Positions 7,701 to 51,954 of a DNA stretch of 64,000 nt are shown piece by piece. This DNA is from Bdellovibrionales bacterium (GTDB lineage Bacteria; Bdellovibrionota; Bdellovibrionia; Bdellovibrionales; UBA1609): assembly GCA_965261545.1 (NCBI GenBank), contig CBDHDF010000002.1:64001-128000 (forward strand), given 5' to 3'. Below the pieces are notes generated by a model. The model made no database searches, was not told the DNA's origin, and worked only from the letters and a program-made list of their open reading frames with translations. Position 1 is the first letter of the stretch, and the number at the start of each line of letters is the position of its first letter. The translations under genes were made by a program, and so were the position numbers.

Positions 7701-9981
7701 ATGGGAGTCAACCCTGCCGGAAACTCCAAAGACAGAATCTGGGATAATGAAGACAGTGAAGGGAAATCATGGACTGATTTGTTTGATTTTTCCTCAAAAG
7801 AAGAAATATGGAAGGAAAGAAAAAATACCACCACCACCCTCGACGAGAAAAAAGGGGCTTTTAGAAGAAAAATCAAGGAAAAAGTATTTCATCTTCTGTT
7901 TCAAAGGCTTTATTTCAGTTTTGAATCCTCCGGTCTGGGTTTTGTCTGTGTCAATCTGGACGATCAAAGAATAGAAAGAGAGATAAAATCTATTAATCTC
8001 ATTCAGACTTCAGGGATGAAAACTGACGGAGATTCAGACACATCGTCAGTTTCTGAAACCTCCTCCTCGGTACATATCATCAAGGAGATTTGTAATGGTT
8101 TTATAAGAATTCTTGGAGACACCTGGCGACGTGAAACTGAGAAAAAAGAAGAGGCAGGATCCATAGATCAAATAAAATCTAAAAAAGCAAGAACATATAT
8201 CGAAAAATGTGCTGAAATTCACAGTCTTGATAAAGGAAAACTGAAACAATTGATTTTCAAATTAGTCACAAATGAAGAATTTGGAGGGCACAGAAAAGCC
8301 ATTCTTGAATCCAAAAATCTTTTTGTCAAATTATCGAAATCAAAAGATCTTTTTTGGGAATGCTACAACTGCTCAAGGCCCCATCTGCACAAAAACGGAC
8401 GAGTGTGTAGCTATTGCTTTTCTGAATTACCCGATGAAACTTCAAAAAAATGTCGAGATTTGTGGAATAACAATTACTACTCCCAACTCTCCGATAGAGA
8501 AAGAGAACCTTTCCGTCTTCACTGTGAAGAATTATCAGCCCAAAGTGATGATCCTGCTGAAAGACAGAGACATTTCCGCAGTTTGGTCATTGGTAAAAAA
8601 ATTGGAATAGTGGAAGAAATTGATATCCTCAGTGTGACAACGACAATGGAAGTGGGGGTGGATATTGGTTCCCTGGAATCGGTGTTCCTGGCCAATATGC
8701 CACCTCAGAGATTCAACTACCAACAGAGAGTGGGACGGGCCGGAAGAGGGAAAGATGAAGTCTTTTCTCTGGCTATGACTTTATGCAGAGGGAACAGTTT
8801 TGATAATTTTTACTTCGAATCTCCCGATAAAATGCTCAATGAAGCCCCGCCTGTTCCTTTCTTGTCCATTGACCGAAAAAAGATTGCAGAACGTCTTGTC
8901 ATAAAAGAGTTGTTGAGAAGGGTTTTTAGAGAATCCAAAAAAAAATCAGGTCATACGGATACTCATGGTGAATTCGGAATTGTGGAAGATTGGGAAAAAA
9001 ATAAAGAAAAAATAAAAAATGAACTGAACGATTTTAATAAAGAAAAACTGAGTGAGATTATCAGACAGATAACATTTGGTGTTGACGGGATGGATCACAA
9101 TAAAATCAAGGAGTTCATTCAAAAAGAACTTTTTAAAAAAATCGTTCATGCCACCGAAGACCAGGCGAAAAACACAGGACTGGCTGAAGCCTTGGCTGAA
9201 AAAAATCTTTTACCCATGTTTGGAATGCCCTCCCGTGTTCGCTATCTTTATCACGGGAAAAAAGGAATTGAGTATAAAAGCATTGATAGGGATTTGGATT
9301 TAGCCATTACTGAATTCGCACCTGGAGCCCAAAAAACAAAAGATAAGAGGATCCACACGGCCATAGGATTCACCTCCCCTTTGTATTCCAAGGGTGGTGA
9401 AACTAAAACGGAATATCCCATTCAGGAAAGGAAATGGCTGTTTCGATGTGAAAAATGCCAGTTCACTCAACCACATGATAAAGAACCTTCTTCAAAATGT
9501 CCCAAGTGTCCAAGTGATAATAATCAAAATTCTTTTGAATATATCATTCCCAAAGCTTTCAGAACCGATTTTTCATGGGGAAAAGATGCCGATGAAGTGG
9601 ATCAACCTCCCTTTTACGGATCAGGGAGCTTTATTGAAGCTGAGTTTGATCACCAAGAACAGGAAAATTATCAATATGTTAGGCGCCAATTAAAATTGGC
9701 CATTTTTAGAAGCCGTCGCCAATGAAAAACGGCCAGTTGATGATGTACTGATTTAGTTATTCTTCGTTCAGAGTTTAGTCAAGTGTCTTTATTTTGCTCA
9801 TCATTTAACTCGGACTATGCCACAAGATTCTGAGGAATGATTTTCTGCCCACCACTTTTGGCATGACCCCAAATGCATCCTTCAGCCCTATGGCAGAGGT
9901 AAATGGAGTATTTTTCAGGATTCCTTGGCGCAGCTAATGTCTAAAGCTCCGCGAGAGTGACGAGCAAATAGTACGGTAAAA

Positions 9982-10079
9982 GCCAGTTATCCATAAATTT
10001 ATCCATGGCGACACTGCGGCTGTGACCCCGATGTCTAGCAACGCAGTGCTGCTGTGGATAAATTTTGTGGATAACTGGC
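9982..10079 (+). other. Conserved long hairpin containing DnaA-box sequences, 3' of istB
   Basis: GCCAGTTATCCATAAATTTATCCATGG...CTGTGGATAAATTTTGTGGATAACTGGC; homologs at 32982-33079 and 37373-37470. Confidence 0.85.
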
Positions 10080-10106
10080 GAGTTCCTTCCCCAAAAGTGG
10101 GGATCT

Positions 10107-10889
10107 CTAATGAACTTCTTTGGTTGAACTTTCCTCTTTGCTCTGTTTAGACTTGGCTTTTGCCGATTCGGTTCTCCAACTTTCTTTTCCTTCAATGTTG
10201 AGGGTTTCACAGTTGTGAATGATTCGATCAACAGCAGCAGCGGTGGTAATAGGGTTAAGAAACACCTTATCCCATTCAGAGTATGTTAAGTTTGTAGTGA
10301 TCATGAGACTTTTCCTTTCATATCGCTGAGATATGAATTGAAAGAAAAGATCTGCCCCCTCTGTGCAGGAAGCTGTATAGCCAAGTTCATCACAAGCAAT
10401 AAGATCAAAACGGTCTAATTTCTTAAAAAGAGCATTCAATGAGAGTTCTTTCTTGCTTTCACGCATTGTTTCAATAAGTTCATGAGTGGTGACCCATAAA
10501 CATCGATAGCCTTGTTCACAGAGTGAACGAACTAGGGACATGGCCAAATGACTTTTCCCCATTCCAAAGCTTCCGTAAAACACAACATTACAGGCTTTTC
10601 TGACCCACTCTCCCTCTGCCATCCAATTAATTTGCTGAGCTGTCACTCCCGTTCTTTTCTGGAAGTTATAAGTTTGGAGTGATTTAAGTTGAGGAAGCTT
10701 GGCCCCCTTAAGCAATCTTTTCACTCTCTGGGAATGCTTGTCAGCAAGCTCATTTTGAACGAGTATACCTAAATACTGTTCATACGTCTTTTTTGTTTTT
10801 TCGGCAACTCTAGCCGTTGCAACATATTCATCCGCCATCGCTGGAAGTCGGAGTTTTTTAAGAGAACCTATAAGTTCTTCGTGATTCAT
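10107..10889 (-). CDS. istB: IS21 helper AAA+ ATPase
   Basis: Walker A GSFGMGKS, Walker B IACDELGY, ITTNL and AAVDRIIH. Confidence 0.95.
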   Translation of the reverse strand: MNHEELIGSLKKLRLPAMADEYVATARVAEKTKKTYEQYLGILVQNELADKHSQRVKRLLKGAKLPQLKSLQTYNFQKRTGVTAQQINWMAEGEWVRKACNVVFYGSFGMGKSHLAMSLVRSLCEQGYRCLWVTTHELIETMRESKKELSLNALFKKLDRFDLIACDELGYTASCTEGADLFFQFISQRYERKSLMITTNLTYSEWDKVFLNPITTAAAVDRIIHNCETLNIEGKESWRTESAKAKSKQSKEESSTKEVH

Positions 10890-12355
10890 TAAGAACCTCC
10901 TATGTTTGGAACAAGACTGTCATATTGAGACAATCTAGGTTGAAGTGGTTTTTGTTGGTCATTCAAATTAATTTTGGTGGGATTTCCTAAGAGCAAATCT
11001 TTTATGGATTTAAAGTCGAAAATCTCACGACTTTCTAATTGAAGCTCCATGGCTGTAGATAAGTCCTGCCAACTCACATGCTGAATCAAGTTGATAACTC
11101 TTAAATATTCATGCTCGGCACGGCTTGAATCTTGTTGCTTGAGGTATTGATAAAAATTTTCAAACACATTTGTTGGAAAAAGAATGGATCGGTGAGCCCA
11201 TCTTACCATGGCTTGCGGCTTACGAACTAAAGAGGGAAGGATATGTTCAAGAAGAAGACTATGCTCCCCATCAGGTTTTCTTTGATGGCGAGCGACAATT
11301 TCTTGCTTCCCTCCTGCACGATAGATCGTGACATGATAGGGACCCTGTACGGTTTTACAGGGAGATTGGATCACCTCATCAGGTATGGAATATGTGGTTT
11401 TACCTATTCTCAAAGTCCCATAACCATTACTTTGACAAATATTCACCTTACAGAGAATATCTTCATCTCGTGGAGGCAAAGGCTTAAGAACTTTGGCCTC
11501 CTCCTCAAAGCGAGATTTGGTGGAGTCACTCTGATGCTGATCCATATAAGACTCTAAAAACTGATTCAAATGATCCCAGTCTTTAAAAACAATTCCTTTG
11601 TTTCTAACAATATTTTTTATCCGAGAACTGAAGGTTCGAATATCACGCTCCACATCTCCCTTGTCAGAGCCCTTCCCTGCGCGGCAGGGAAGAACCTTAA
11701 ATCCATAGTATTGGATGGCTCGATCAAAAGATTGGGTGTAAATTCGCTGATTTCCTTTAAGAACTTTCTTCACACAGGGAGATAAATTATCAATACGGAT
11801 GTTCGCACTCATCCCACCTATCTTTTCAAAAAAAGCATGCACCCCATCGATGAAACACTCATAGACAAGAAAGGGGTAGGCACGAACCCAACAGGTGCCA
11901 CTACAAGGCAATGTTCCAAAATGGAGATGAACGATCTGAACACCATCGGCAAATGGTAAAGCAACCTTCTCCTTAAAATCAAACTGAGCCTGTTCTCCAG
12001 GATCATATCTTTGGCTGAAAAAACGCTCCTTGGGGCGAGAACCAAGAATCTCACAAACTCTTCTCTGAACCGTTCTCTCACTCCCACGATAACCCTCCTC
12101 AACTAATAGCTCATATATTTCACGGGCGGTGTTACTTGGGTTCAACTTCAAAAAGTACTTCACCCGATCCATATATCCATTAAGGGGATCTGGGCGAGTT
12201 CTTTTGGACCTCGCCTTGTACTTCGGTGGGGTGTTGGACTCACAGTACTTGCGCACCGTCTTACGATTGATCCCTAATTCACGAGATATTTCTGTCTTAT
12301 TTTTACCACTGTGACTCAGGTCACGAATGCGGCCGAAAGTGTATTGACTAATCAT
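10889..12355 (-). CDS. istA: IS21 transposase
   Basis: N-terminal HTH (EISRELGINRKTVRKY), PGEQAQFDF, IDNL and DKGDVE. Start placed at ATG 12355 after a GAGGAGG RBS. Confidence 0.92.
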   Translation of the reverse strand: MISQYTFGRIRDLSHSGKNKTEISRELGINRKTVRKYCESNTPPKYKARSKRTRPDPLNGYMDRVKYFLKLNPSNTAREIYELLVEEGYRGSERTVQRRVCEILGSRPKERFFSQRYDPGEQAQFDFKEKVALPFADGVQIVHLHFGTLPCSGTCWVRAYPFLVYECFIDGVHAFFEKIGGMSANIRIDNLSPCVKKVLKGNQRIYTQSFDRAIQYYGFKVLPCRAGKGSDKGDVERDIRTFSSRIKNIVRNKGIVFKDWDHLNQFLESYMDQHQSDSTKSRFEEEAKVLKPLPPRDEDILCKVNICQSNGYGTLRIGKTTYSIPDEVIQSPCKTVQGPYHVTIYRAGGKQEIVARHQRKPDGEHSLLLEHILPSLVRKPQAMVRWAHRSILFPTNVFENFYQYLKQQDSSRAEHEYLRVINLIQHVSWQDLSTAMELQLESREIFDFKSIKDLLLGNPTKINLNDQQKPLQPRLSQYDSLVPNIGGS

Positions 12356-14054
12356 AAGATCCTCCTCATTGCTAACCTTTTGAGTTGCAAAAGGGAGGGA
12401 CTCTGTGAGCTTAGTATCTATATCAGAAGAAGAGACTTCATTGTCTAGTATTTGAACACTCCCTGAAGATTGGTCACTTTTCATTGGCGACAACCTCCAT
12501 ATTGAAAGTGGGACATTTTAATTGGCGACGGCTTTAAGGGAAGCCTGTCTTCAGAAAGAAATTCCATGAAAATTGAGGCAAATGTTGGAATCTTGTGGAA
12601 TTTAAATACTTTAGAAAATGGGCACAGCCTAAACAGGCTTTTCTTGACTATATATTTAACCTCATTGAAATCCAGAAACAGTCTACAAATGACAAATATG
12701 GAACCTGAATAGGCTGTCATGGAAGGACTCTCCAACACGGAGCCCCTTTCCAGGTCGACAAGAACCCAAAAGGAGTTCTTATCAGCTCGGAGCCTTTTTA
12801 TGAGTAATATCAATTGATTATATGCGTCTCGGTTGACAATGCCAAAAATCACCATAGGTCCTCCTCTGAAAAGTGGCCACTTTTCATTGGCGACGGTGGG
12901 GCATTTTAATTGTCAGCTAACACAATACGCCTTAGTTGAGGATGGTAAGGTATTTCGAATCAATGACAACAATAAAAACTTCTTCGAAGGTTCTGTTGGA
13001 GAGTTTAAAAGATTGGAAAATCAATGGATTGTTAATAATTACGAAAATTTTATAAAAAAACTGAAAACTCCAAATTCATATCTGATGAATCGGGAGTAAT
13101 GAAAGTGGCTTTGGCTTCAAAAAAACAAACAGAGGTTTTTAGTATTAAGCATCACAGAATTCCAGAAGACCTTGATCTGGATTACTACAAAAAAGGTTCG
13201 GCCATGAAAGGGGCTTATTATTCCGCCGCTTTTATCATAAGAACTCTTGTCGCAGAAACACTAGATATTAACCCGGAGGAACTCGAAATAGGAAATATCG
13301 TTGGAACCAAAGTGAATCAAAAAACAGGAGGAGAGATCAGAATCAATGATAGCTTGCCTAACGGGGCTGGATTTTCCACCTGGATAAAGGAAAATATTTC
13401 GGACATTCTGAAGAAAATAAAATCTGAAAACAGTGACAGTGCTTTTATAAAAAAAATTTACTCTGAGGTTCATCAAGAAGATTGCAAATCCTCCTGCCAC
13501 CTCTGTTTGAAAGCTTATCGTAACATTAACTATCATGGACTTCTGGACTGGCGACTTGGGATATCTCTTCTCAAAAGCTTTATTGACATGAATTATAAAG
13601 CCGGACTAGACGGTAACTTCCGGGAGCCAGAATTAAAAGGTTGGAAAGAAAATACGAAATTATTAAGAGATGAATTTTGTAAGAATTTTCCATCGTGTTC
13701 TCCAAGGAATTTTAAAGAACTTTCTGGTTTCTCGGTTAACGAAGCAAATATTGTTATTCTTCATCCTTTTTGGACTAAAAATTCTCCCTTAGTCAAAAAG
13801 TCTATCAATGGTAATGAATGCAAAATCATTGATACGTTCAATTTATTAAGAAGACCCAGTTTTGTTTACAAAGAAATTGCCGAGTTTCCTTAAAATGTAC
13901 CACCTGATTTCCTCAGTAGTGTACCAGTCGATTTTAAATCGGTATAGAGAATTCGTAGAGGTTTGCCTAGTAGCTCAAGGACCGCGCGGTTTGTGGATCC
14001 GATTTGAGGATAAACTCCAACACGACCCAGTGAAGGTATGGGTTCAATTAGCGT

Positions 14055-25576: not shown

Positions 25577-26898
25577 TAAACCTCCTATTAACCATTTATC
25601 GGCTAATTTATAGCCAAACTTAAGCCAAAAACTAGCTCATATCAACTTCTTTTTAAATATAATAATAACAAATACTTAGGTTACATACCATTCTCTTGTT
25701 CTTCTTAAGGACTTTAGTCAGGACACTTTCTAATGAGTTTAATGGGAGAATCCACAGGTGTTTCTTTTATTGATGCAAGAACTGGCGTCCCCGGTCCCAA
25801 GATAAGCGAACACCCCCAAGTTGTGGAAAGGGTGTACTCGATGGAGTGGAGGCGGCTTTCTAGACATTTTGGGCGTTCTGGGCCATAGATCTGGAAAACC
25901 TAAGGAGGGCTGAGTTTGACTTTACAAGGAACTGGCAAATTTCCTTATGGGCTCTCGCAGCAGTCTGTTTTGTAATGATCTGGCCTGCGCATTGGCTCAT
26001 AAAAGAGGTAACTTTGGATGGTGCGATATTTTTGAGCTAATCGCCGATGGACTCATAAATATCTTACCCTAGATTGAGTTGTTGTTAGCTGACAATTAAA
26101 ATGCCCCACCGTCGCCAATGAAAAGTGGCCACTTTTCAGAGGAGGACCTATGGTGATTTTTGGCATTGTCAACCGAGACGCATATAATCAATTGATATTA
26201 CTCATAAAAAGGCTCCGAGCTGATAAGAACTCCTTTTGGGTTCTTGTCGACCTGGAAAGGGGCTCCGTGTTGGAGAGTCCTTCCATGACAGCCTATTCAG
26301 GTTCCATATTTCTCATTTGTAGACTGTTTCTGGATTTCAATGAGGTTAAATATATAGTCAAGAAAAGCCTGTTTAGGCTGTGCCCATTTTCTAAAGTATT
26401 TAAATTCCACAAGATTCCAACATTTGCCTCAATTTTCATGGAATTTCTTTCTGAAGACAGGCTTCCCTTAAAGCCGTCGCCAATTAAAATGTCCCACTTT
26501 CAATATGGAGGTTGTCGCCAATGAAAAGTGACCAATCTTCAGGGAGTGTTCAAATACTAGACAATGAAGTTTCTTCTTCTGATATAGATACTAAGCTCAC
26601 AGAGTCCCTCCCTCTTGCAACTCAAAAGGTTAGCAATGAGGAGGATCTTATGATTAGTCAATACACTTTCGGCCGCATTCGTGACCTGAGTCACAGTGGT
26701 AAAAATAAGACAGAAATATCTCGTGAATTAGGGATCAATCGTAAGACGGTGCGCAAGTACTGTGAGTCCAACACCCCACCGAAGTACAAGGCGAGGTCCA
26801 AAAGAACTCGCCCAAATCCCCTTAATGGATATATGGATCGGGTGAAGTACTTTTTGAAGTTGAACCCAAGTAACACCGCCCGTGAAATATATGAGCTA

Positions 26899-28797
26899 CC
26901 TGAAATCCCTAAAAGTTGTAACTAGGTGTAGGACTTAAGTCCTGATTATTGTCTGAGAAGGCCTTCACTTTGATTAAGAGATTGTCATCTCTTCAAAAGC
27001 ATAGTTACAATATTAACGATGTCATACACTTTTGAGCAAAAAAATAAGGGAAAAACCTATGTCTATAAAGTTGAAAGCTTTTGGGACAAGGAAAAAAAGC
27101 AGGCCAGGCAAAAACGCATCTACCTTGGAAGAAAGGATGAGTTTACAGGTCAAATTAAGACCAAAAGAAAAAAGATTCCCATAGGCTCCTATAATGTGGG
27201 AGCCTTATTTTTCTTAGAGAAAATATGCGAACAACTAAATCTTCTAAAAACATTGTCTAAAATTTATCCAGATAATTACGAACATTATTTGCATTTAGCT
27301 TTTTTTAAAATAATCAAAAGAGAGCCCTTTTATCTTTACGATATGTGGTGTCAAGAAGCTTATGTTTCAAAGAAAAATTTTATGTCGTCACAAAAAATAA
27401 GCAATCTCTTATGTGATCTTGGGAGAGATCAAAAAAAGATAGAATCTTTCTTTAGCGAATGGATAAATCAAGTGAAGGGTTCTGGTACGGTAATGTTTGA
27501 CATCACATCCTTTTCTTCCTACTCTATGAATAATGAATTTTTAGAGAAAGGTTACAACAGAGATGGAGAGAATCTCGAACAAATAAACTTAGGTCTGATA
27601 AGTAGGAAATCTGAAGACAATAAAACTCATACGCCTATAGCGTACAGAATCTATCCTGGAAGTATACCGGATGTCAAAACTTTATCGAATATTATTGAGA
27701 TCATAACAAGTTATAAATTAGATTTAGATTGTTTAGTTATGGATAAGGGTTTTTCTAGTGTAGAAAATATTAAGGGACTGCATCGTAAGGAATTGAAGTA
27801 TTTGATACCCATGAGTTTTAGAACAAAACTCTCAAGAGAGCTTGCTGTGGCTTTAAATGAGAAAATAAAATCTCCATCATGCTCTTTTACTTTTAATGAG
27901 GAAATTTATTCGCATTGCAAAGAATCAATAAAAATCGGAGGATTTGATTGTACGGCTCATATTTTCTTAGACAAAGAAAGAAGGGTTTATGAGGAATCTG
28001 TGTTAATGAAAGAGTTGCTTGATTTTATGAAACTCTTTCTTGAGAAAGATTTGAAATCAGAAGAACAAGCTAGTTCCTATATGAAAGAAACTTTAGGAAA
28101 TAAAAAAAGGTTTCTCAATATCTCTGATTGCACTCCATTTAAGATTTCTTTAAATGAAGAAAATATTAATGAAGAATCTTCTACGCTGGGTATTATGATA
28201 TTAATTACAAATAGTCATGATTTAAAGAAAACAAATATATTGAGTTTATATCGAAACAAAGATATCATTGAGAAAGTATTTTTCTCATTCAAGCATGATA
28301 TTAATGGAAGGAGAAGTCGAGTTCATTCTCTCATGAATATGAGGGGAAGCATCTTTATTAATTTTCTCTCTTTAATTTTAATTTCACATATTGATACTGT
28401 TATGAAAGATAAGAAGTTATATAAAAAAATGTCTAAAATAGAAATTTACAAAATGATGGACCGATTAAAATTTTATGAATTAGCTACAGGTGATCTGATG
28501 CTTGGAGAGCTGTCTAAAAAACAAAAGGATATTTTTTCAGCCTTCCAAATAGATGGGCTTCCCAAGACAAAATGATGTTTTTTATCTGTTTCAAATGTGA
28601 CGGTGGCTGTGGCTACCACTATGCCTCATCTATCCAATGGGGACGAAGAGGACCTTTCGCAGCAAATTCTTATGAATCATATTAAATATATTAATACTAT
28701 TAAACCTCTCAAACCGTTGACAGCAGCCAATTCCATAGGAAGAGAGGAAAGTTAACGCAATACATTAAACCTAGTTACAACTTTTAGGGATTTCAGG
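26899..28797 (+). mobile_element. IS1634-family element A
   Basis: Perfect 28-bp IR CCTGAAATCCCTAAAAGTTGTAACTAGG; 6-bp target duplication GAGCTA. Confidence 0.92.
27019..28575 (+). CDS. IS1634-family transposase
   Basis: FDITSFSSYS, GYNRDGE, VMDKGF and YRNKDIIEKVF. Confidence 0.88.
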   Translation: MSYTFEQKNKGKTYVYKVESFWDKEKKQARQKRIYLGRKDEFTGQIKTKRKKIPIGSYNVGALFFLEKICEQLNLLKTLSKIYPDNYEHYLHLAFFKIIKREPFYLYDMWCQEAYVSKKNFMSSQKISNLLCDLGRDQKKIESFFSEWINQVKGSGTVMFDITSFSSYSMNNEFLEKGYNRDGENLEQINLGLISRKSEDNKTHTPIAYRIYPGSIPDVKTLSNIIEIITSYKLDLDCLVMDKGFSSVENIKGLHRKELKYLIPMSFRTKLSRELAVALNEKIKSPSCSFTFNEEIYSHCKESIKIGGFDCTAHIFLDKERRVYEESVLMKELLDFMKLFLEKDLKSEEQASSYMKETLGNKKRFLNISDCTPFKISLNEENINEESSTLGIMILITNSHDLKKTNILSLYRNKDIIEKVFFSFKHDINGRRSRVHSLMNMRGSIFINFLSLILISHIDTVMKDKKLYKKMSKIEIYKMMDRLKFYELATGDLMLGELSKKQKDIFSAFQIDGLPKTK

Positions 28798-30140
28798 GAG
28801 CTATTAGTTGAGGAGGGTTATCGTGGGAGTGAGAGAACGGTTCAGAGAAGAGTTTGTGAGATTCTTGGTTCTCGCCCCAAGGAGCGTTTTTTCAGCCAAA
28901 GATATGATCCTGGAGAACAGGCTCAGTTTGATTTTAAGGAGAAGGTTGCTTTACCATTTGCCGATGGTGTTCAGATCGTTCATCTCCATTTTGGAACATT
29001 GCCTTGTAGTGGCACCTGTTGGGTTCGTGCCTACCCCTTTCTTGTCTATGAGTGTTTCATCGATGGGGTGCATGCTTTTTTTGAAAAGATAGGTGGGATG
29101 AGTGCGAACATCCGTATTGATAATTTATCTCCCTGTGTGAAGAAAGTTCTTAAAGGAAATCAGCGAATTTACACCCAATCTTTTGATCGAGCCATCCAAT
29201 ACTATGGATTTAAGGTTCTTCCCTGCCGCGCAGGGAAGGGCTCTGACAAGGGAGATGTGGAGCGTGATATTCGAACCTTCAGTTCTCGGATAAAAAATAT
29301 TGTTAGAAACAAAGGAATTGTTTTTAAAGACTGGGATCATTTGAATCAGTTTTTAGAGTCTTATATGGATCAGCATCAGAGTGACTCCACCAAATCTCGC
29401 TTTGAGGAGGAGGCCAAAGTTCTTAAGCCTTTGCCTCCACGAGATGAAGATATTCTCTGTAAGGTGAATATTTGTCAAAGTAATGGTTATGGGACTTTGA
29501 GAATAGGTAAAACCACATATTCCATACCTGATGAGGTGATCCAATCTCCCTGTAAAACCGTACAGGGTCCCTATCATGTCACGATCTATCGTGCAGGAGG
29601 GAAGCAAGAAATTGTCGCTCGCCATCAAAGAAAACCTGATGGGGAGCATAGTCTTCTTCTTGAACATATCCTTCCCTCTTTAGTTCGTAAGCCGCAAGCC
29701 ATGGTAAGATGGGCTCACCGATCCATTCTTTTTCCAACAAATGTGTTTGAAAATTTTTATCAATACCTCAAGCAACAAGATTCAAGCCGTGCCGAGCATG
29801 AATATTTAAGAGTTATCAACTTGATTCAGCATGTGAGTTGGCAGGACTTATCTACAGCCATGGAGCTTCAATTAGAAAGTCGTGAGATTTTCGACTTTAA
29901 ATCCATAAAAGATTTGCTCTTAGGCAATCCCACCAAAATTAATTTGAATGACCAACAAAAACCACTTCAACCTAGATTGTCTCAATATGACAGTCTTGTT
30001 CCAAACATAGGAGGTTCTTAATGAATCACGAAGAACTTATAGGTTCTCTTAAAAAACTCCGACTTCCAGCGATGGCGGATGAATATGTTGCAACGGCTAG
30101 AGTTGCCGAAAAAACAAAAAAGACGTATGAACAGTATTTA

Positions 30141-32285
30141 GTTCCTGTCCAGGGAAGAAAGTTAAGTAGTTTTAAGTATTTACATGCCTTCCCTTTAGAT
30201 TTTATGCTTTAAAATGGAGTCCATCAAACATAATCCGTGTAAATTCAGTTACTTACATAAAACGGAAAAATAAAATAAGTTCCCCCCCCTCTCTTGACGA
30301 ACCTTTCACAGCCCCTCCCTTTCAGTGACTTATGTGGCTATCAACTGGTTACTTGATATGAGAGGAAGAGTTGGATCAACCTGTGTTTCCACCGTGGTGA
30401 TTTCAAACCTCCTTCAGGGAAATAACATTACGTTGCGCATCAACTTCAAAAAATACTTGACGTGTTTTTTCAGAGAAATAATTTTTGATATTTTATTCTT
30501 CATTTATTTTTTATGTAGGTTTTAGGAGGCGTGGGAACCTCTCTATGAGGTAGAATTCTTATCCATGTTCTCCGAGAACCTCTCTGATTTTTTTCTTCTT
30601 AAAAGACATCCTTGCTCACTTTTTTCCCTCAAAAAAACGTATGTTAATATAAAAATTAAAGAGAAACTTTCACCAAAGGGGGGACTATGCGCCATTTGAA
30701 GAAGACACAGTTGGGACTCTTTTCCCAATATCCTAACCACCAACTCAGTACAGAATTGCAGCAAATTAATAACATCATTGATCGCCATCCAGAGTTTGCC
30801 CATATGGTTCATGAAGACCTTGTTAAAGAAAAGAAAGATTCTGGTGATATTGGTATGACATCGGAGCAAGTTCTCAAGGTGGCTATTCTTAAATCCATAA
30901 GAGGTCTTTCCTATCGTGCGTTAGCCTTTAATCTTGTCGATTCAGTATCCACCAGAGCTTTTCTGGGCCTTGAATTGGAAGAAAATTACGCTCACTCCAC
31001 CTTACAGGACTTGATTGTTCAAATAAGTGAAGAAACTTGGGGAATTATTAGCGCCTCTTTAGTTTCAGATGCAAGAGATCAAAAGATTGAGCCGTGTAAG
31101 AAAATGAGATTGGACAGTACAGTGACGAAATCAAATATTCATCATCCAACGGATGCATCGCTTTTATATGACTGCATAAGAGTTACAGAAAGAGAATTTA
31201 AAAAAGTTCGTAAAAATGTCATGAAAGATTTTTGGCGACTTATTTCAAGAGAAGATCTTAAGAGAGCAAAAACCTTGCTTTACAAAATTAATAATTCCAA
31301 AAATGATGCGGAAAGACTACCTTGCTATAAGGAGCTTTTAAAAATCGCTACCAAATTGAACAAAGGATTACCTGATACCATCAGAAAGATAAAAAAAGAA
31401 CAAAAATGTGTGAAGATGAATGCTTTGAAAAAGAGTCTAAAACAGTTAGAAAATGTTGCCTTCTACCTGGAAAAAATCATCTTTCAAACTCAAAAAAGAG
31501 TTATTGAGGGGAAAAAAGTATCTTCTGAAAAAAAGGTCCTATCCATCTTTGAACCGCATACAGACATTATTGTAAAGGGGCAAAGAGAAGTCGAGTTTGG
31601 GCATAAAATCTTTTTGACCTCAGGGCAAAGCAACATGATTTTAGATTGTCAGATCCCTGATGGCAACCCCGCAGACTCTGATATGTTTTTAAAAGTTATG
31701 AATTCAGTGACACAAACCTATGGGGCTTGCCCTGTAAAAGTAAGTGCAGATGGTGGGTTTGCTTCAAAAGAAAATCTTGAAGAGGCCAAAGAGATGGGGG
31801 CTAAAGATGTTTGCTTCCCAGAAAAAAAAGGAATGAAAATATTAAAGATGGTTAAAAGTGCTTGGGTCTTTAAAAATCTTCTCAATTGGAGAGCCGGAAT
31901 AGAGGCTGTTATTTCATTCCTTAAGAGATGTTTTGGTATGAGAGTTGCTTACTGGAAAGGGCATGATGGTTTTAAGAGGTATGTAAAGAATGCCGTTTGT
32001 GCCTATAATTTTGTTGTCTTGGCAAGACATGAATTATCAACTGTCACCTAAATTTATCCATTAGGAATAACAGCAATGGACCAGGTCGAAGGTGCTAAAA
32101 TCTTCCAAAGGTAGGGGTGCGTCTTCAAATCGAAAAAACTAGGGCGCAAGTCGCTTAAAGACCTTTTTCCCCTTAATCTGTAGAGTTTGTGTGGCAAATC
32201 TCCAACTCTCACTCCCCCATTGAGGCATTGGGAGGCTCAATGGGGAGTGTCAGAGAACAAAAAATGGGCCTTTCTGGACAGAAAC
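30141..32285 (+). mobile_element. IS5-like/ISNCY element
   Basis: Ends GTTCCTGTCCAG and CTGGACAGAAAC; 6-bp target duplication TATTTA. Confidence 0.9.
30687..32051 (+). CDS. IS5-like/ISNCY DDE transposase
   Basis: RLDSTV...HHPTD, EFGHK, ADGGF and WRAGIEAVISFLKR. Confidence 0.88.
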   Translation: MRHLKKTQLGLFSQYPNHQLSTELQQINNIIDRHPEFAHMVHEDLVKEKKDSGDIGMTSEQVLKVAILKSIRGLSYRALAFNLVDSVSTRAFLGLELEENYAHSTLQDLIVQISEETWGIISASLVSDARDQKIEPCKKMRLDSTVTKSNIHHPTDASLLYDCIRVTEREFKKVRKNVMKDFWRLISREDLKRAKTLLYKINNSKNDAERLPCYKELLKIATKLNKGLPDTIRKIKKEQKCVKMNALKKSLKQLENVAFYLEKIIFQTQKRVIEGKKVSSEKKVLSIFEPHTDIIVKGQREVEFGHKIFLTSGQSNMILDCQIPDGNPADSDMFLKVMNSVTQTYGACPVKVSADGGFASKENLEEAKEMGAKDVCFPEKKGMKILKMVKSAWVFKNLLNWRAGIEAVISFLKRCFGMRVAYWKGHDGFKRYVKNAVCAYNFVVLARHELSTVT

Positions 32286-33821
32286 TATTTAGGTATACTC
32301 GTTCAAAATGAGCTTGCTGACAAGCATTCCCAGAGAGTGAAAAGATTGCTTAAGGGGGCCAAGCTTCCTCAACTTAAATCACTCCAAACTTATAACTTCC
32401 AGAAAAGAACGGGAGTGACAGCTCAGCAAATTAATTGGATGGCAGAGGGAGAGTGGGTCAGAAAAGCCTGTAATGTTGTGTTTTACGGAAGCTTTGGAAT
32501 GGGGAAAAGTCATTTGGCCATGTCCCTAGTTCGTTCACTCTGTGAACAAGGCTATCGATGTTTATGGGTCACCACTCATGAACTTATTGAAACAATGCGT
32601 GAAAGCAAGAAAGAACTCTCATTGAATGCTCTTTTTAAGAAATTAGACCGTTTTGATCTTATTGCTTGTGATGAACTTGGCTATACAGCTTCCTGCACAG
32701 AGGGGGCAGATCTTTTCTTTCAATTCATATCTCAGCGATATGAAAGGAAAAGTCTCATGATCACTACAAACTTAACATACTCTGAATGGGATAAGGTGTT
32801 TCTTAACCCTATTACCACCGCTGCTGCTGTTGATCGAATCATTCACAACTGTGAAACCCTCAACATTGAAGGAAAAGAAAGTTGGAGAACCGAATCGGCA
32901 AAAGCCAAGTCTAAACAGAGCAAAGAGGAAAGTTCAACCAAAGAAGTTCATTAGAGATCCCCACTTTTGGGGAAGGAACTCGCCAGTTATCCACAAAATT
33001 TATCCACAGCAGCACTGCGTTGCTAGACATCGGGGTCACAGCCGCAGTGTCGCCATGGATAAATTTATGGATAACTGGCTTTTACCGTACTATTTGCTCG
33101 TCACTCTCGCGGAGCTTTAGACATTAGCTGCGCCAAGGAATCCTGAAAAATACTCCATTTACCTCTGCCATAGGGCTGAAGGATGCATTTGGGGTCATGC
33201 CAAAAGTGGTGGGCAGAAAATCATTCCTCAGAATCTTGTGGCATAGTCCGAGTTAAATGATGAGCAAAATAAAGACACTTGACTAAACTCTGAACGAAGA
33301 ATAACTAAATCAGTACATCATCAACTGGCCGTTTTTCATTGGCGACGGCTTCTAAAAATGGCCAATTTTAATTGGCGCCTAACATCTGGCCCACTTAGGG
33401 GAACCCCACAAAGCTCATGTTGTGATTTCTCAATGACATAGCGACGACAAATAAAAATAACTCATTATTTACAAATACTTATATAACTCAACCAAACTTA
33501 TGCTCCGCACAATAAGACTGAGGTGGACCCCAATGTCAGACTGAAAAACTATATTACAAAATACGAGAGAGGTCATCTTAACAAATCACTAAGGCTTGGA
33601 GATCAAACACGAGCCCAATCAATACTGACAAAGCAAAGCGAGTAAATCTTGTTGCGTTCTCGGCCGCAACAAGATTTTTGCCCTTGATTCCGCAACACAT
33701 ACGCAACAAACACCTAGGTCAGTTGGACGTATCTTCAAGGTTTTCTTGACGTTGGTTTGAAGTGGGAAAGGGCCGTATTTGCTGAATTTTCATGAACTTA
33801 GGGGAGGGTTTCGTCTTTCAA

Positions 33822-37043: not shown

Positions 37044-37243
37044 TGCTGAATTTCACGAGTTTGACCCACTGAATTTCACGAAGTTTGACCCACCCCTCAG
37101 TCAGTCAATTTGAGGTCCAATTTTGAATTTCACGGTGGCTCAAACTTTGTCAATTTAAACCTTCTTTTTTCTGCTGACTCAGTAACTTTTACACCCTCAA
37201 TGTCACGATGTCCCAACGGTGGGTTAAGGCTTATTTGCCAGAA
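37044..37243 (-). mobile_element. Orphan terminus of a second IS21-family element
   Basis: TGCTGAATTTCACGAGTTTGACCCAC followed by TGAATTTCACGAAGTTTGACCCAC tandem end repeats. Confidence 0.65.
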
Positions 37244-38358
37244 TGTTAGATGCCAACTAAAATTGGCCACTTTGTCATTGAGAATCTCGACCCTCCCCAT
37301 TTCTGAGGTTTCAATGGAGGGTTTTTCAATGGGGATGTTGAATCCATTGCTCAAAATGGCAGAGAATAGCGAGCCAGTTATCCACAAATTTATCCATGGT
37401 GACGCTGCGTCTGTGACCCCGATGTCTATCAACGCAGCGCTGCCGTGGGTAAATTTTGTGGATAACTGGCGGGTACATGATTCAATAGTTCCGATGGAGT
37501 GTCTCCCGATGGTGTCTTCCAAGGTCTGCCTTTGCATGGATTCTCCTTAAATCGTCTTTCTCTGCCTAAATGAGCTTCCAGACATGGCTATTTTGATAGC
37601 TTGAGAGGTTATGCGATCCATAATAGCTTCACAAACGATGGGATCCTCAATGACTTCACTCCAATTTTTTATTGGAAGTTGGGTTGTAAGAATGAGGCTC
37701 AGGTCAGGGCCTCGTTCATCAATCACATCGTAAAGGTCTTGATATTGGTTAGAGGTAAGGGGCTTGATACCAAAATCATCCAACACAAGTATCGAGACTG
37801 ATTTTAGCCTTTTAAGGAAGTTTAGATATGTCCCCTGGGCTCTTTCTAAGTTGAATTTTTCAACAAGAGTATTCATTCTGAAGAACTGAGTGGAAAAACC
37901 TTGGCGACAGGCGTGATTACCTATGGCACAAGCCAAATATGACTTTCCAACACCCGTTGGGCCAGAGATAATTATATTTTGACCTCTTTGAGCAAATCTC
38001 ATAAGGGCTAGATCACTCAAAACTCTTCGATCGACTCCTCGGTTGGATTTGGTTTCAAAGGCCTCAAGGCTTGCTTTTTGCTGCAAAGCTGCTCTTTTGA
38101 TAAGTCTTGAGACCTTCTGATTTTCACGATGGATTTTTTCGTCCTCAAAGATGACATTTAGAAAGTCCTCGTAACCAAGATCCTGCTCCTCAGCTTCTTT
38201 GAGCCTCTGGCTCAAGGTTGCTAAAACTCCCCTCATTTTTAATATCTCTAATAAATTTTCTGTTTGTTTAATCATTTTCTTCTCCTATACGACCTCTCTT
38301 ATGGAGGTCAAAATGACCCGTTAGGTGGTTGAGAACCACCCACCGGGGCTATGTGATT
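37244..38358 (-). mobile_element. Right part of a third IS21-family element (istA lost)
   Basis: End TGTTAGATGCCAACTAAAATTGGCCA resembles the copy 1 right end; contains the hairpin and istB. Confidence 0.8.
37547..38275 (-). CDS. istB: IS21 helper ATPase, divergent from copy 1
   Basis: GPTGVGKS, LVLDDFG, LTTQLP and AIMDRI. Confidence 0.92.
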   Translation of the reverse strand: MIKQTENLLEILKMRGVLATLSQRLKEAEEQDLGYEDFLNVIFEDEKIHRENQKVSRLIKRAALQQKASLEAFETKSNRGVDRRVLSDLALMRFAQRGQNIIISGPTGVGKSYLACAIGNHACRQGFSTQFFRMNTLVEKFNLERAQGTYLNFLKRLKSVSILVLDDFGIKPLTSNQYQDLYDVIDERGPDLSLILTTQLPIKNWSEVIEDPIVCEAIMDRITSQAIKIAMSGSSFRQRKTI

Positions 38359-40271
38359 CCCGAGTTTGACAGCAGCATCTGCGTTAAAATGCGAAATTTC
38401 CAGAAATTGGGGTTGTACTGAAATATAATGGTAGCTGCTGGAAAAATTAAAATTGACGTAAAAAAAGTGTAGAAAACAAAATAGGATTTTATCGTTTTAA
38501 ATATTGATATATCATAGAAATATGTAGAAAATATCCTCATGTACATCCAAACGACTAAAAACTCAAAAGGTCAGTGCTACTACCACCTTGTGGAGTCCTA
38601 CAGAGAAAAAGGCAAATCCAAAAAACGCATGCTCATGTCCTTAGGTAAGGCTGGAGAAGGAGGAGAGGATAAGATTAATAGTTTGGCGCAGGCCGTATCC
38701 CGCCACCGAGAGCTTCTCACTGTGAGTCAATTGGCTAAGGAGCTTTACATCGAAGAGACTTTCATTTTGGGTCCCTTGCTGATTTTACAAAAGTTGTTTG
38801 ATCAACTGGGTATCAATAAGACCCTCAAAGACATAAAAGATTCTCATGAGAAAGTTCAATTTGATTTATGTAAGGTGATTTTTACCTTAGTTGCCATCCG
38901 ATTTATTGCTCCTAGTTCCAAGTTAAAGGTTTTTGAGTATTGGCAAAAATCTTTTTACCCAGACATGATTAAGGGTGATTTGAGTCTCCAGCATATTTAT
39001 CGGTCTATGGACTTACTTGCCTCCCATAAGGATGAAATAGAGAACTCGCTTTATTGGGTGGGGCGAGATTTATTTAATTTCCAAGTAGACATTGTGTTGT
39101 ATGATTTAACAACCTTACGCTTCGAGAGTACAAGAACAGACTTAGGGAAACTTCGTCAATTTGGCTATAGTAAAGAGAGACGATCAGACTGCACCCAAGT
39201 TGTCTTTGGTTTGTTGGTGAATCGGGATGGCATCCCTTTAGGTTTTGAGGTTTTCCCTGGTAATACTTTTGAAGGCAAGACGCTTTCAGATATTGTTGAT
39301 AAAATGAGAAAAAAGTTTAATGTACACCGTTTCATTTTTGTGGCTGATAGGGGGCTTTTATCAAAGGCTAATACTGACAAACTCAGTGAGGATCAAAGCG
39401 AGTTTATTGTTGGTATGAAGCTTGGATCTTTAAAAAAAGAAAAGAAACAAGAGGTCTATGATTTAAATCGTTTTAGCTGGGTATATGAGAATGAGCTTGC
39501 TGTTTACGAAACAGACCATGGGGGGCATAGATGTATTGTGACTTGGTCTAGGAAAAGAGCAGAGAGGGATAAAAAATCTAGAGAATCCCTTCTTGAAAAG
39601 ATCGAAGGAAAACTATCTTCTAAAGGTGTTCAGTCTAGTACTTTTGTTTCCAATAAAGGTTATAAGAAATATGTAAAGATGGCTGACGACAAAAATAAAA
39701 AACCTGAATTAAATGCAGAACAAATAGAATTAGATGAAAAAATTGATGGTTTTTTTGCCGTCCTTACAAATGTCAAAGACTTGACGGCAGATGAGATTAT
39801 TATCAACTACAAAGAATTGTGGAAAATTGAAGATGCTTTTGGTGAGTTAAAAGGGACTTTGAAAACACGTCCTGTTTTCCATTGGACAGACCAGAGGATT
39901 ATTGGACATTTAACTCTATGCTTTTTAACTTATCTTTGTGAGGCCCACCTTACAAAATGTTTAAGAGATAAGAAGATGAACCTAAAAAGCCCAGCCATAG
40001 GCATTGGTCATGTTAAAGAGCGACCTTTAACTGTTGTAGAGGCCATGAGGGAACTCAAGGAAGTTAGGGCTATCCCTGTTAAAATTCGTGATCAAGTCAT
40101 TTGGACCCGCACAGATATCACTGGCAATGCCAACTCCTTATTTAAAGCCGCAGGCGTCCCCATCCCTCCCAGAATCCTTAATGCCCACAAGTGTGGATAA
40201 ACAAAATACAACTATATGCGTTAATCCTTTAATATCATTCGTTTGACGCAGATGCTGCTGTCAAACTCGGG
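38359..40271 (+). mobile_element. IS1634-family element B
   Basis: Perfect IR CCCGAGTTTGACAGCAGCATCTGCGT; no flanking duplication. Confidence 0.92.
38539..40200 (+). CDS. IS1634-family transposase
   Basis: YDLTTLRFE, GYSKE, VADRGL and YKELWKIEDAF. Confidence 0.92.
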   Translation: MYIQTTKNSKGQCYYHLVESYREKGKSKKRMLMSLGKAGEGGEDKINSLAQAVSRHRELLTVSQLAKELYIEETFILGPLLILQKLFDQLGINKTLKDIKDSHEKVQFDLCKVIFTLVAIRFIAPSSKLKVFEYWQKSFYPDMIKGDLSLQHIYRSMDLLASHKDEIENSLYWVGRDLFNFQVDIVLYDLTTLRFESTRTDLGKLRQFGYSKERRSDCTQVVFGLLVNRDGIPLGFEVFPGNTFEGKTLSDIVDKMRKKFNVHRFIFVADRGLLSKANTDKLSEDQSEFIVGMKLGSLKKEKKQEVYDLNRFSWVYENELAVYETDHGGHRCIVTWSRKRAERDKKSRESLLEKIEGKLSSKGVQSSTFVSNKGYKKYVKMADDKNKKPELNAEQIELDEKIDGFFAVLTNVKDLTADEIIINYKELWKIEDAFGELKGTLKTRPVFHWTDQRIIGHLTLCFLTYLCEAHLTKCLRDKKMNLKSPAIGIGHVKERPLTVVEAMRELKEVRAIPVKIRDQVIWTRTDITGNANSLFKAAGVPIPPRILNAHKCG

Positions 40272-49982: not shown

Positions 49983-50172
49983 ATTTCTAATTTTATTCCC
50001 TATATGAATCATATACGTTCTTTTAGTTCTAAAATATTAATCTTTTAAATTCGTTCATCCGAATTATTTAGTACTGCTTCTTGTAACTGCGATAAAATTA
50101 AGAGGAGGAGTGAGAGCATTGGCTAGGAATTAAGATATTGTGGATGATTAAAATAAAATATTGGAAAGAGAA

Positions 50173-51954
50173 ATGGGGAAATTAGAACATATAAAATATA
50201 ATAGAAATTATCTTATAGATCTAATATATCATATTTTATTCATATTATTTTTGGCGACTCTTTTAGGTTGTAATAAAGATTCCAATAAAGAAAATAAAAG
50301 TATTAACCTCAGTTTTGATTTGTTGTCAACTATCATTTCTTCAAGTAATGCGCGCTCTTATCCTGTTAGAGGATTTTGTAGCTTATCTATTGGAAAAAAT
50401 GTATTTGTACTTATTGAGGAACTAAATAAATCTCCCATAGAGGTGTCTTGTGTATCCAATAATTTTTCATTAAATATCGATGTAACAAACTTAAGATCAC
50501 CCAATGCTACAATTAAAATCACTCAAGGAGATTATGTACAAAGTATCATTGTTCAGAATAATATGAATCATTTTGTAACAAAATGGACATTTCCGGATGA
50601 TAACTATGAATTTACTATTCCTCTTAAAGGAGGTGGTAATCCAGTATTGCAATATGATTTTGTTGTGGATTGGGGAGATGAGAGTGGATCTAGTAAGGTG
50701 ACATCTTTTGATGATCCGGATAAGATGCATAATTATGTAAAAAAAGGAGAATATACGATCACAATTATAGGTATTTGTGAGGGGTTTGAGAATAGATTAG
50801 CCCCATTGAATGATCTTTTATTGGAGGTCTTAGACCTTGGAGATATGGGGTGGAAGGATTTATCTCAAGCTTTTGAAGATAATTCTCTTCTCACAAAAGT
50901 TCTTGGAGGGAATACATCAGGTGTGATTGATATGAGTCGTATGTTTGTAGATGCCACTCAAGTAACTCCAGATACAAGTGGGTGGGATACTTCAAGTGTG
51001 ACAAATATGGCAAGGATGTTTAGAGATGCCACTCAAGCGACCCCAGATACAAGTGGGTGGGATACTCCAAATGTGACAAGTATGGTAGATATGTTTAGAG
51101 ATGCTACTCAAGCGACTCCAGATACAAGTGGGTGGGATACTTCAAATGTGACAAGTATGGCAGGTATGTTTGCATATGCCACTCAAGCGACTCCAGATAC
51201 AAGTGGGTGGGATACTTCAAATGTGACAAGTATGGCAGGTATGTTTGAAGCTGCCACTCAAGCGACTCCAGATACAAGTGGGTGGGATACTTCAAATGTG
51301 ACAAGTATGGCAGGTATGTTTGCATATGCCACTCGAACGACTCCAGATACAAGTGGGTGGGATACTTCTGAAGTCACGCGTATGAATGGTATGTTTGACA
51401 ACGCTCGGCAAGCAAATCCAAATACAAGTAAGTGGAATACTTCTAAGGTCACAAGTATGTCAGGTATGTTTTTAGATGCCCTTCAAGCGACTCCAGATAC
51501 AAGCGAATGGGATACTTCAAATGTTACAAATATGGCAAGGATGTTTAGAGGCTCCTCAGCAAATCCAGATACAAGTAAGTGGAATACTTCTAAGGTCACA
51601 AGTATGTCAGGTATGTTTTTAGATGCCCTTCAAGCGACTCCAGATACAAGCGGATGGGATACTTCAAATGTTACAAATATGGCAAGGATGTTTAGAGGCT
51701 CCTCAGCAAATCCAGATACAAGTCGTTGGGATTTTACCGAAGTTACAAATATCAGTGATATATTTGGTATGTCAAATCTATCCATCGAGAATTATTCAAA
51801 ATTTCTAATACAACTCAATGAAACTCCACCTACGAGTACAAGCATTCAGAAGATTATTAATGTGGGGACATTAAAATATAATTCTATGTCTAAATTAATC
51901 CGCACAAGTTTAAGAAATAAAGATTGGATGATCACAGATGGGGGTCTGGAATAA
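50173..51954 (+). CDS. BspA/DUF285-repeat surface lipoprotein with a PKD-like domain
   Basis: Lipobox LLGC, VDWGD..H.Y motif and WDTSNVTSMAGMF repeats; start uncertain. Confidence 0.88.
   Translation: MGKLEHIKYNRNYLIDLIYHILFILFLATLLGCNKDSNKENKSINLSFDLLSTIISSSNARSYPVRGFCSLSIGKNVFVLIEELNKSPIEVSCVSNNFSLNIDVTNLRSPNATIKITQGDYVQSIIVQNNMNHFVTKWTFPDDNYEFTIPLKGGGNPVLQYDFVVDWGDESGSSKVTSFDDPDKMHNYVKKGEYTITIIGICEGFENRLAPLNDLLLEVLDLGDMGWKDLSQAFEDNSLLTKVLGGNTSGVIDMSRMFVDATQVTPDTSGWDTSSVTNMARMFRDATQATPDTSGWDTPNVTSMVDMFRDATQATPDTSGWDTSNVTSMAGMFAYATQATPDTSGWDTSNVTSMAGMFEAATQATPDTSGWDTSNVTSMAGMFAYATRTTPDTSGWDTSEVTRMNGMFDNARQANPNTSKWNTSKVTSMSGMFLDALQATPDTSEWDTSNVTNMARMFRGSSANPDTSKWNTSKVTSMSGMFLDALQATPDTSGWDTSNVTNMARMFRGSSANPDTSRWDFTEVTNISDIFGMSNLSIENYSKFLIQLNETPPTSTSIQKIINVGTLKYNSMSKLIRTSLRNKDWMITDGGLE
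50910..51770 (+). repeat. Coding tandem array of 66-69-bp units (about 12)
   Basis: CCAGATACAAGTGGGTGGGATACTTCAAATGTGACAAGTATG recurs with near identity. Confidence 0.9.

Follow-up and report, generated by a model that had tools for sequence, protein, structure and literature searches.

The window, that is, the whole stretch of 64,000 nucleotides analysed here, carries an intact IS21 element (IS21-A copy 1; 9677..12922, minus strand) with TG...CA ends and a 5-bp target duplication (9672-9676 and 12923-12927). Its istA (10889..12493, minus strand; 534 aa) has only weak rve, Mu C-terminal and HTH matches, its istB (10107..10889, minus strand; 260 aa) matches PF01695, and its right end holds an inverted repeat (IR) plus a subterminal repeat (9677..9743, plus strand). 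Upstream of istA there is also a 124-aa ORF with no Pfam match (12481-12855, minus strand). IS21-A copy 2 (26083..33385, plus strand) is present as three pieces (26083-26898, 28798-30141 and 32286-33385) with two nested DDE elements. A different element, IS21-B (copy 3), is represented by its istB (37547..38275, minus strand; 242 aa, PF01695) and by a right end with two tandem repeats (37046..37094, plus strand); its istA is missing, and a DDE element (PF01609; 38358..40272, plus strand) cuts it ~80 nt upstream of istB. The two IstB proteins are 25% identical, in line with the clear divergence claimed in an earlier note on this DNA. That note had also described a 98-nt imperfect palindrome just 3' of istB in three IS21 copies, and all three proved to be present: type A in IS21-A copy 1 (9982..10079, plus strand) and copy 2 (32982..33079, minus strand), and type B in IS21-B (37373..37470, plus strand). 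Its statement that the surrounding sequence is not shared between the two IS21 types held for the most part, the exception being an A-type right IR relic of 31 nt within IS21-B (37243..37273, plus strand; 87% identical to 9676-9706). Elsewhere in the window, 75-nt tandem repeats (50829-51766) lie inside a DUF285 (BspA-like) gene (50161-51954).

The type A hairpin has a 37-pair stem with four G.T pairs, one A.C mismatch and one bulged T. In copy 1 the plus strand is the G.T-rich one and is antisense to istAB; the copy 2 hairpin, identical in sequence, is the exact reverse complement of that of copy 1 in window letters. The terminal IR of the DDE element (38358-38388) matches the inner stem (10042-10057) at 16 of 17 bases. 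Both strands of the hairpin fold as DNA, at -33.6 and -32.9 kcal/mol for copy 1 (z -8.9 and -8.8, i.e., about -9) and with z of -8.3 and -6.8 for copy 3; under RNA parameters the z values on the two strands were -11.1 and -8.0 (copy 1) and -9.5 and -8.1 (copy 3), and 0 of 200 shuffles folded as well as the hairpin under DNA or RNA parameters. The hairpins of copies 1 and 3 differ at 8 of 98 positions (six in the stem and two at the loop edge). On the window plus strand all six stem differences are pairing-neutral (both partners change at 10013/10047, and at four further pairs a change on one side creates or removes a G.T) and each stem has four G.T pairs and one A.C; the observation that most stem differences keep pairing was thus borne out in full. 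The three copies amount to two sequences, however, so that the window shows a single compensatory event. The loop is identical among the window's copies but is not kept in the ISL3 and IS110 versions found elsewhere in the genome.

In the genome as a whole (G000), nhmmer returned 110 non-overlapping matches, which became 106 loci after one noise match and three downstream halves of intron-split copies were removed. These loci belong to IS21-A (60), IS21-B (18), an ISL3 element (19), an IS110-family element (3) and relics or hybrids (6); all 106 lie within IS ends or relics thereof, and none is free-standing. Thus the hairpin follows the final gene in two IS21 types, one ISL3 and one IS110/IS1111-type element, the last of which we take to be IS1111-type from its 14-bp subterminal repeats. 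When the 450 nt downstream of 70 multi-copy protein clusters were scanned, the hairpin was found behind five of them, namely the four carriers and one neighbour of an IS21-A copy, where it lies beyond the neighbour's own shared sequence. No hairpin was present downstream in two further IS21 types of the same genome, with 17 and 13 copies, or in an IS256-like element with 69. The earlier view of the hairpin as an IS21 motif was therefore overturned, as it also occurs in ISL3 and IS110-type elements and is lacking from two IS21 types of the host and from the relatives checked. The boxes of the hairpin are 130-330 nt from the IS end, and the G.T-rich strand is antisense to the transposase in IS21-A, IS21-B and IS110 and sense in ISL3. 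Hairpin orientation showed no bias relative to the local GC skew (49/82, p 0.10; 24 of 106 copies omitted for want of a unique flank, and the skew noisy).

The genome consists to ~44% of multi-copy DNA, with dozens of IS and intron families. One IS110-type copy (L002; C11:752000-754700), whose 3' region is ~860 nt long, lies between CRISPR repeats (CRISPR-DR16 matches on either side). Position 10053 of the window, the inner perfect DnaA box of type A, is a group II intron landing site in other hairpin copies: an ORF-less group II intron sits there at C10:508797, C11:695141, C11:1056593, C2:47909 and C2:463511 (L006, L007), and the one in L006 contains a nested RT-encoding intron of opposite orientation. 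The 5' end of another, distinct group II intron lies within an ISL3-type hairpin, in its 3' arm (C10:111604, minus strand), on the same G.T-rich strand. Group II intron insertions were considered as evidence of single-strandedness and set aside: of the seven insertions of the ORF-less intron, five are in the hairpin and two in the IR of a DDE element whose sequence there is near-identical.

Each hairpin contains four DnaA-box-like 9-mers with perfect boxes at 10053 and 10066 (type A) and at 37378 and 37457 (type B), just as the earlier note had claimed. The perfect boxes of type A are arranged in tandem, 13 nt apart (10053-10061 and 10066-10074, minus strand), and its 5' arm has two near boxes (9987-9995 with one mismatch and 9999-10007 with two, plus strand); the near boxes of type B (37390 and 37444) have two mismatches. 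Once type B is folded, its outer box duplex (37378-37386 against 37457-37465) is fully Watson-Crick, and each of types B to G has one perfect box duplex, the outer one, in the folded state. In folded type A, the commonest variant (60 of 106 copies), there is one T.G wobble in the outer box and there are two wobbles in the inner box; perfect type A boxes therefore exist only in duplex DNA. Among all seven variants the outer boxes are the same except for one C-to-T, and the loop is replaced. Hairpin loci account for 202 of the 298 perfect DnaA boxes of the genome (same-composition 9-mers: median count 34). The host DnaA has domain IV, which presumably differs from that of E. coli at two residues, and the host dnaA-dnaN spacer contains one perfect and five near boxes, with the same box as in the hairpin; domain IV and these boxes support a host DnaA that reads TTATCCACA. 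A perfect DnaA box also lies at the end of the gene of the DDE element (window 40192-40200), and a copy of the same DDE element (C6:162109-164098) has tandem boxes on both flanks.

Stem and flanks were compared in the ISL3-type ends of the active element and of three right-end relics, four in all. Variable columns numbered 2 of 64 in the stem, 52 of 187 in the flanks and 8 of 25 in the loop (Fisher p 6e-6 for stem against flanks, columns and sequences not being independent), i.e., the stem has ~ninefold fewer than the flanks, the IR included. In the alignment of the seven variants, two-sided changes affect 4 of the 32 pairs, and 97% of cells are paired; the covariation score was reached by 0 of 500 shuffles, and four two-sided pairs by 38 of 500. 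Three of the four two-sided pairs are adjacent and fall on one split, the remaining one being separate, which reduces the covariation to about two events. Covariation among the copies is thus real, but it is the product of about two events, and template switching in a quasi-palindrome can mimic it. All seven variants share the inner-stem wobbles and A.C mismatch; the excess of G.T over A.C positions on one strand (6 vs 1, p 0.125) is not significant alone. The hairpin is a real, selected structure, and the picture drawn earlier of a selected, strand-biased structure with DnaA-box sequences stands on stem conservation, covariation and the presence of the same box in the host dnaA-dnaN spacer.

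The A-type right IR relic in IS21-B lies 100 nt from the hairpin, in the same orientation as in IS21-A, from which it follows that IS21-B captured a right end of the A clade. The IS21-B hairpin is 92% identical to type A, and the spacer to the relic IR has lost nearly all similarity. The IS110 element contains 182 nt of an ISL3 right end (84% identity), inverted relative to its transposase. Moreover, an older A copy (C11:695069) has a B-type hairpin within A flanks, indicating that either type A changed recently or hairpins convert each other. Judged from these sequences, the hairpin is an accessory module that spread by capture of element right ends; the sequence of captures is one that we infer.

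Among the relatives of IS21-A (24 IstB-A loci, one without flank; mostly 51-62% identical, with the same end repeats) and of IS21-B (28 IstB-B loci, two with little or no flank), istB runs almost straight into the right IR; two IstB-B relatives at 47% identity share the same end, yet are without the hairpin. IstB-A relatives at 75-81% identity are known as proteins (P0005-P0015). The hairpin was found in 0 of 23 ISL3 loci of other genomes (25-31% identity, some duplicates) and in none of 49 distinct regions that follow IstB-like genes, drawn from 80 viral loci. Model R1 had no match in 116 loci of related elements (51 + 65) or in 108 genomes of the same family (mostly MAGs, which often lack IS), and the family pattern was absent from 60 relatives. 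In plasmids, blastn with the hairpin gave only chance matches of 19-36 nt; in viral contigs the specific hairpin pattern had no match and the search for IstB-A returned nothing; in metagenomes the specific pattern had two matches, both non-hairpin chance matches in eukaryote-like DNA. Generic box-pair patterns, tried as well, retrieved origin-like box clusters and no IS hairpins (neighbours judged by eye), and the match rate of a loose hairpin pattern was near control level. A conserved IS21 cis element was rejected, since the hairpin is not present across related IS21 loci (R1, 0/116). Thus, as far as searched, the hairpin appears to be a local gain restricted to this lineage.

A different hairpin of ~120 nt occupies the same place behind the gene in an ISL3 element of genome G041 (z -8.6 and -10.0). 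It holds three CCACA-core duplexes in which the boxes are imperfect, not full (L288:355-482), and occurs in three full and three partial copies (L288, L317, L318, L320, L322 and L324), the partial ones adjoining either an IS21-like end or the 3' end of a group II intron, with one intron end in the 3' arm. It had no match to R1; its own model, R2, matched G041 alone among 141 genomes and did not match G000, and blastn in plasmids returned nothing. A common small hairpin follows istB in an IS21 of G003 (L158) and the ISL3 gene in G520 (L303), and L370 shows yet another accessory hairpin at an IS right end. As anecdotes judged by eye, such cases suggest that accessory hairpins recur in IS right ends, with exact DnaA boxes seen here alone.

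As for function, our preferred reading, which we hold tentatively and rate as somewhat short of probable, is that the right ends of these four IS carry a putative A-site-like ssDNA signal at which DnaA loads the helicase during copy-out. Copy-out transposition would displace one strand as ssDNA, and the displaced strand would need its own priming. That strand would fold into the hairpin and so present a DnaA box as duplex in the stem, host DnaA would bind the folded box and load the replicative helicase, and primase would then initiate synthesis of the missing strand, in the manner of the ABC-primosome A site; the hairpin may bring a gain in transposition. The signal would be optional for elements in this host, because the host has PriA and a DciA-type helicase loader, as the hairpin-less elements show. 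IS911 is said to require DnaG, a requirement for which our literature search found no paper. An account of copy-out transposition (10.1101/2023.06.07.543989) lists IS21, ISL3 and IS110/IS1111 among the elements that form circles and are presumed to move by copy-out, a process in which a single-strand bridge arises and a 3'OH primes copying. The A-site-like reading is favoured because the carriers are presumed copy-out elements and because, in E. coli, a DnaA box placed in a hairpin of ssDNA is sufficient to load DnaB and permit priming (PMC6127211). A DNA signal also fits better than a transcript, since the strand orientation relative to the transposase differs among carriers.

Several findings count against the A-site-like reading. 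The main one, as regards a strict A site, is that the commonest variant, type A, presents no perfect box duplex once folded. Moreover, hairpin-less circle-forming elements multiply here (the IS256-like element with 69 copies, the IS21 types with 17 and 13), close IS21 relatives with the same ends carry no insert at all, the analogous G041 hairpin keeps the CCACA core only rather than full boxes, and the host has PriA and a loader of the DciA type, DnaC being the loader with which ABC priming was demonstrated. RNA would account equally well for the G.T bias and for the wider difference between the strands under RNA parameters. An RNA function, in which a long 3'-UTR or antisense stem would set the stability or ending of the transposase transcript and the boxes would be incidental or RNA-bound, nevertheless strikes us as unlikely. 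It would account for the G.U bias to one strand (RNA z -11.1 vs -8.0) and for a hairpin always just behind the last gene, and a sigma70-like site (37235-37263, 10/12) that overlaps the relic IR of IS21-B faces the hairpin on its G.U-rich strand; promoter-like sites, however, occurred at chance rate (1 found, 0.8-1.0 expected), there is no Rfam family, and the G.U-rich strand is sense in ISL3 but antisense in the other three carriers, which weakens the antisense RNA put forward in the earlier note. An intrinsic terminator was rejected, as there was no sense-strand terminator call; the sense-strand run of four Ts after the stem is limited to type A, and the hairpin is therefore no general terminator.

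Binding of DnaA to the double-stranded boxes, in the way known from the outside end of IS50, would make sense of the two perfect tandem boxes that type A has in duplex form only and of the 202 of 298 perfect genome boxes in hairpin loci; DnaA binds Tn5 ends and can out-compete transposase, according to the part of PMC3347997 at hand. Such putative binding might gate transposition or be titrated by the ~100 copies, which we think quite improbable, because it does not account for a palindrome of 32-37 pairs, for two-sided changes that lie outside the boxes or for the one-strand wobbles, and because the boxes are 130-330 nt from the ends and not within them. The preservation of exact outer boxes across a split at 75% identity, together with the four box-like 9-mers per hairpin, makes it rather doubtful that the hairpin is a single-strand signal for another host factor (a PriA-type or primase-only ssi, or a CCACA-binding protein), with the DnaA match a resemblance, even though PriA is present in the host, different accessory hairpins occupy the same place in other IS (L288, L158/L303, L370), that of L288 has CCACA cores but imperfect boxes, and the inner-stem wobbles and A.C mismatch are constant in all seven variants. 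Capture scars (the relic IR in IS21-B and the 182-nt ISL3 piece in the IS110 element), the exchange seen in the A-type copy with a B-type hairpin (C11:695069) and relatives that do without the hairpin would suit a neutral passenger, i.e., a nested-insertion relic whose copies are homogenised by gene conversion and by template switching between the arms. This we regard as very unlikely: the stem has ~ninefold fewer variable columns than the flanks including the IR, its mismatches are retained rather than repaired, and the IS21-B hairpin is still 92% like type A although the spacer to the relic IR has nearly all diverged.

Returning to DnaA-dependent priming, a broader proposal, which is possible and yet more tentative, is that circle-forming IS acquire and trade single-strand priming modules, the present hairpin being a putative natural ABC-primosome site and the G041 hairpin and others belonging to the same class. 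If the A-site-like reading is true, this would be the first example of DnaA being used by transposons to initiate second-strand synthesis on a copy-out circle, and DnaA-hairpin priming would gain a role in transposition. To our knowledge, second-strand synthesis on the displaced copy-out strand is poorly defined; the copy-out account, in the part available, names the 3'OH-primed strand only (10.1101/2023.06.07.543989). A small, removable, selected module common to three IS families makes this step directly testable. Two thirds of the perfect DnaA boxes of the genome being in hairpins, a load on host initiation is also possible.

Comparison with known systems set several candidates aside. Rfam had 0 matches in the window, with generic miRNA-stem matches far below the gathering threshold, in keeping with the earlier note, which gave no named motif for it. 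An integron attC site has the order RYYYAAC ... GTTRRRY and is accompanied by an integron integrase; here the order is reversed (GTT first and AAC last, on both strands) and no TIGR02249 match exceeded the cut-off. REP/REPIN/BIME sequences are likewise ~100-nt hairpins with ~100 copies per genome (PMC6006769, as far as accessible), but they were rejected because no free-standing intergenic copy exists here (106/106 in IS ends or relics). A literature search, with subscription papers, supplements and ISfinder outside its scope, found no description of a hairpin of this kind in an IS. The IS50 end measures 19 bp and its element moves by cut-and-paste. Like the present carriers, IS50/Tn5 is an insertion sequence with a host DnaA site, at its outside end; in the part of PMC3347997 consulted, that end has one box and no hairpin, whereas the boxes here are internal, palindromic and common to several families. 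The ssi/sso of phages, plasmids and ICEs are also imperfect palindromes on mobile elements and are proposed to allow second-strand synthesis by host enzymes, but they serve rolling-circle replication or conjugation (PMC5714925 and PMC4595007, both in part); no description of ssi/sso inside IS21, ISL3 or IS110 elements was found in the literature search. Closest to our preferred reading is the A site of the ABC primosome (Masai 1990, Carr and Kaguni 2002, via the accessible part of PMC6127211), which resembles the hairpin in having a DnaA box as duplex in a hairpin stem (a perfect duplex in types B to G, whereas both box duplexes of type A carry G.T wobbles) and in its location in DNA that can be single-stranded. 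It differs in having one box, assayed on M13 ssDNA with E. coli DnaB/DnaC (same source), as against two box duplexes, a 32-37-pair stem, IS right ends and a DciA host here. Thus the parts are known (A site, ssi/sso and the IS50 DnaA site), while their setting in an IS is new as far as searched.
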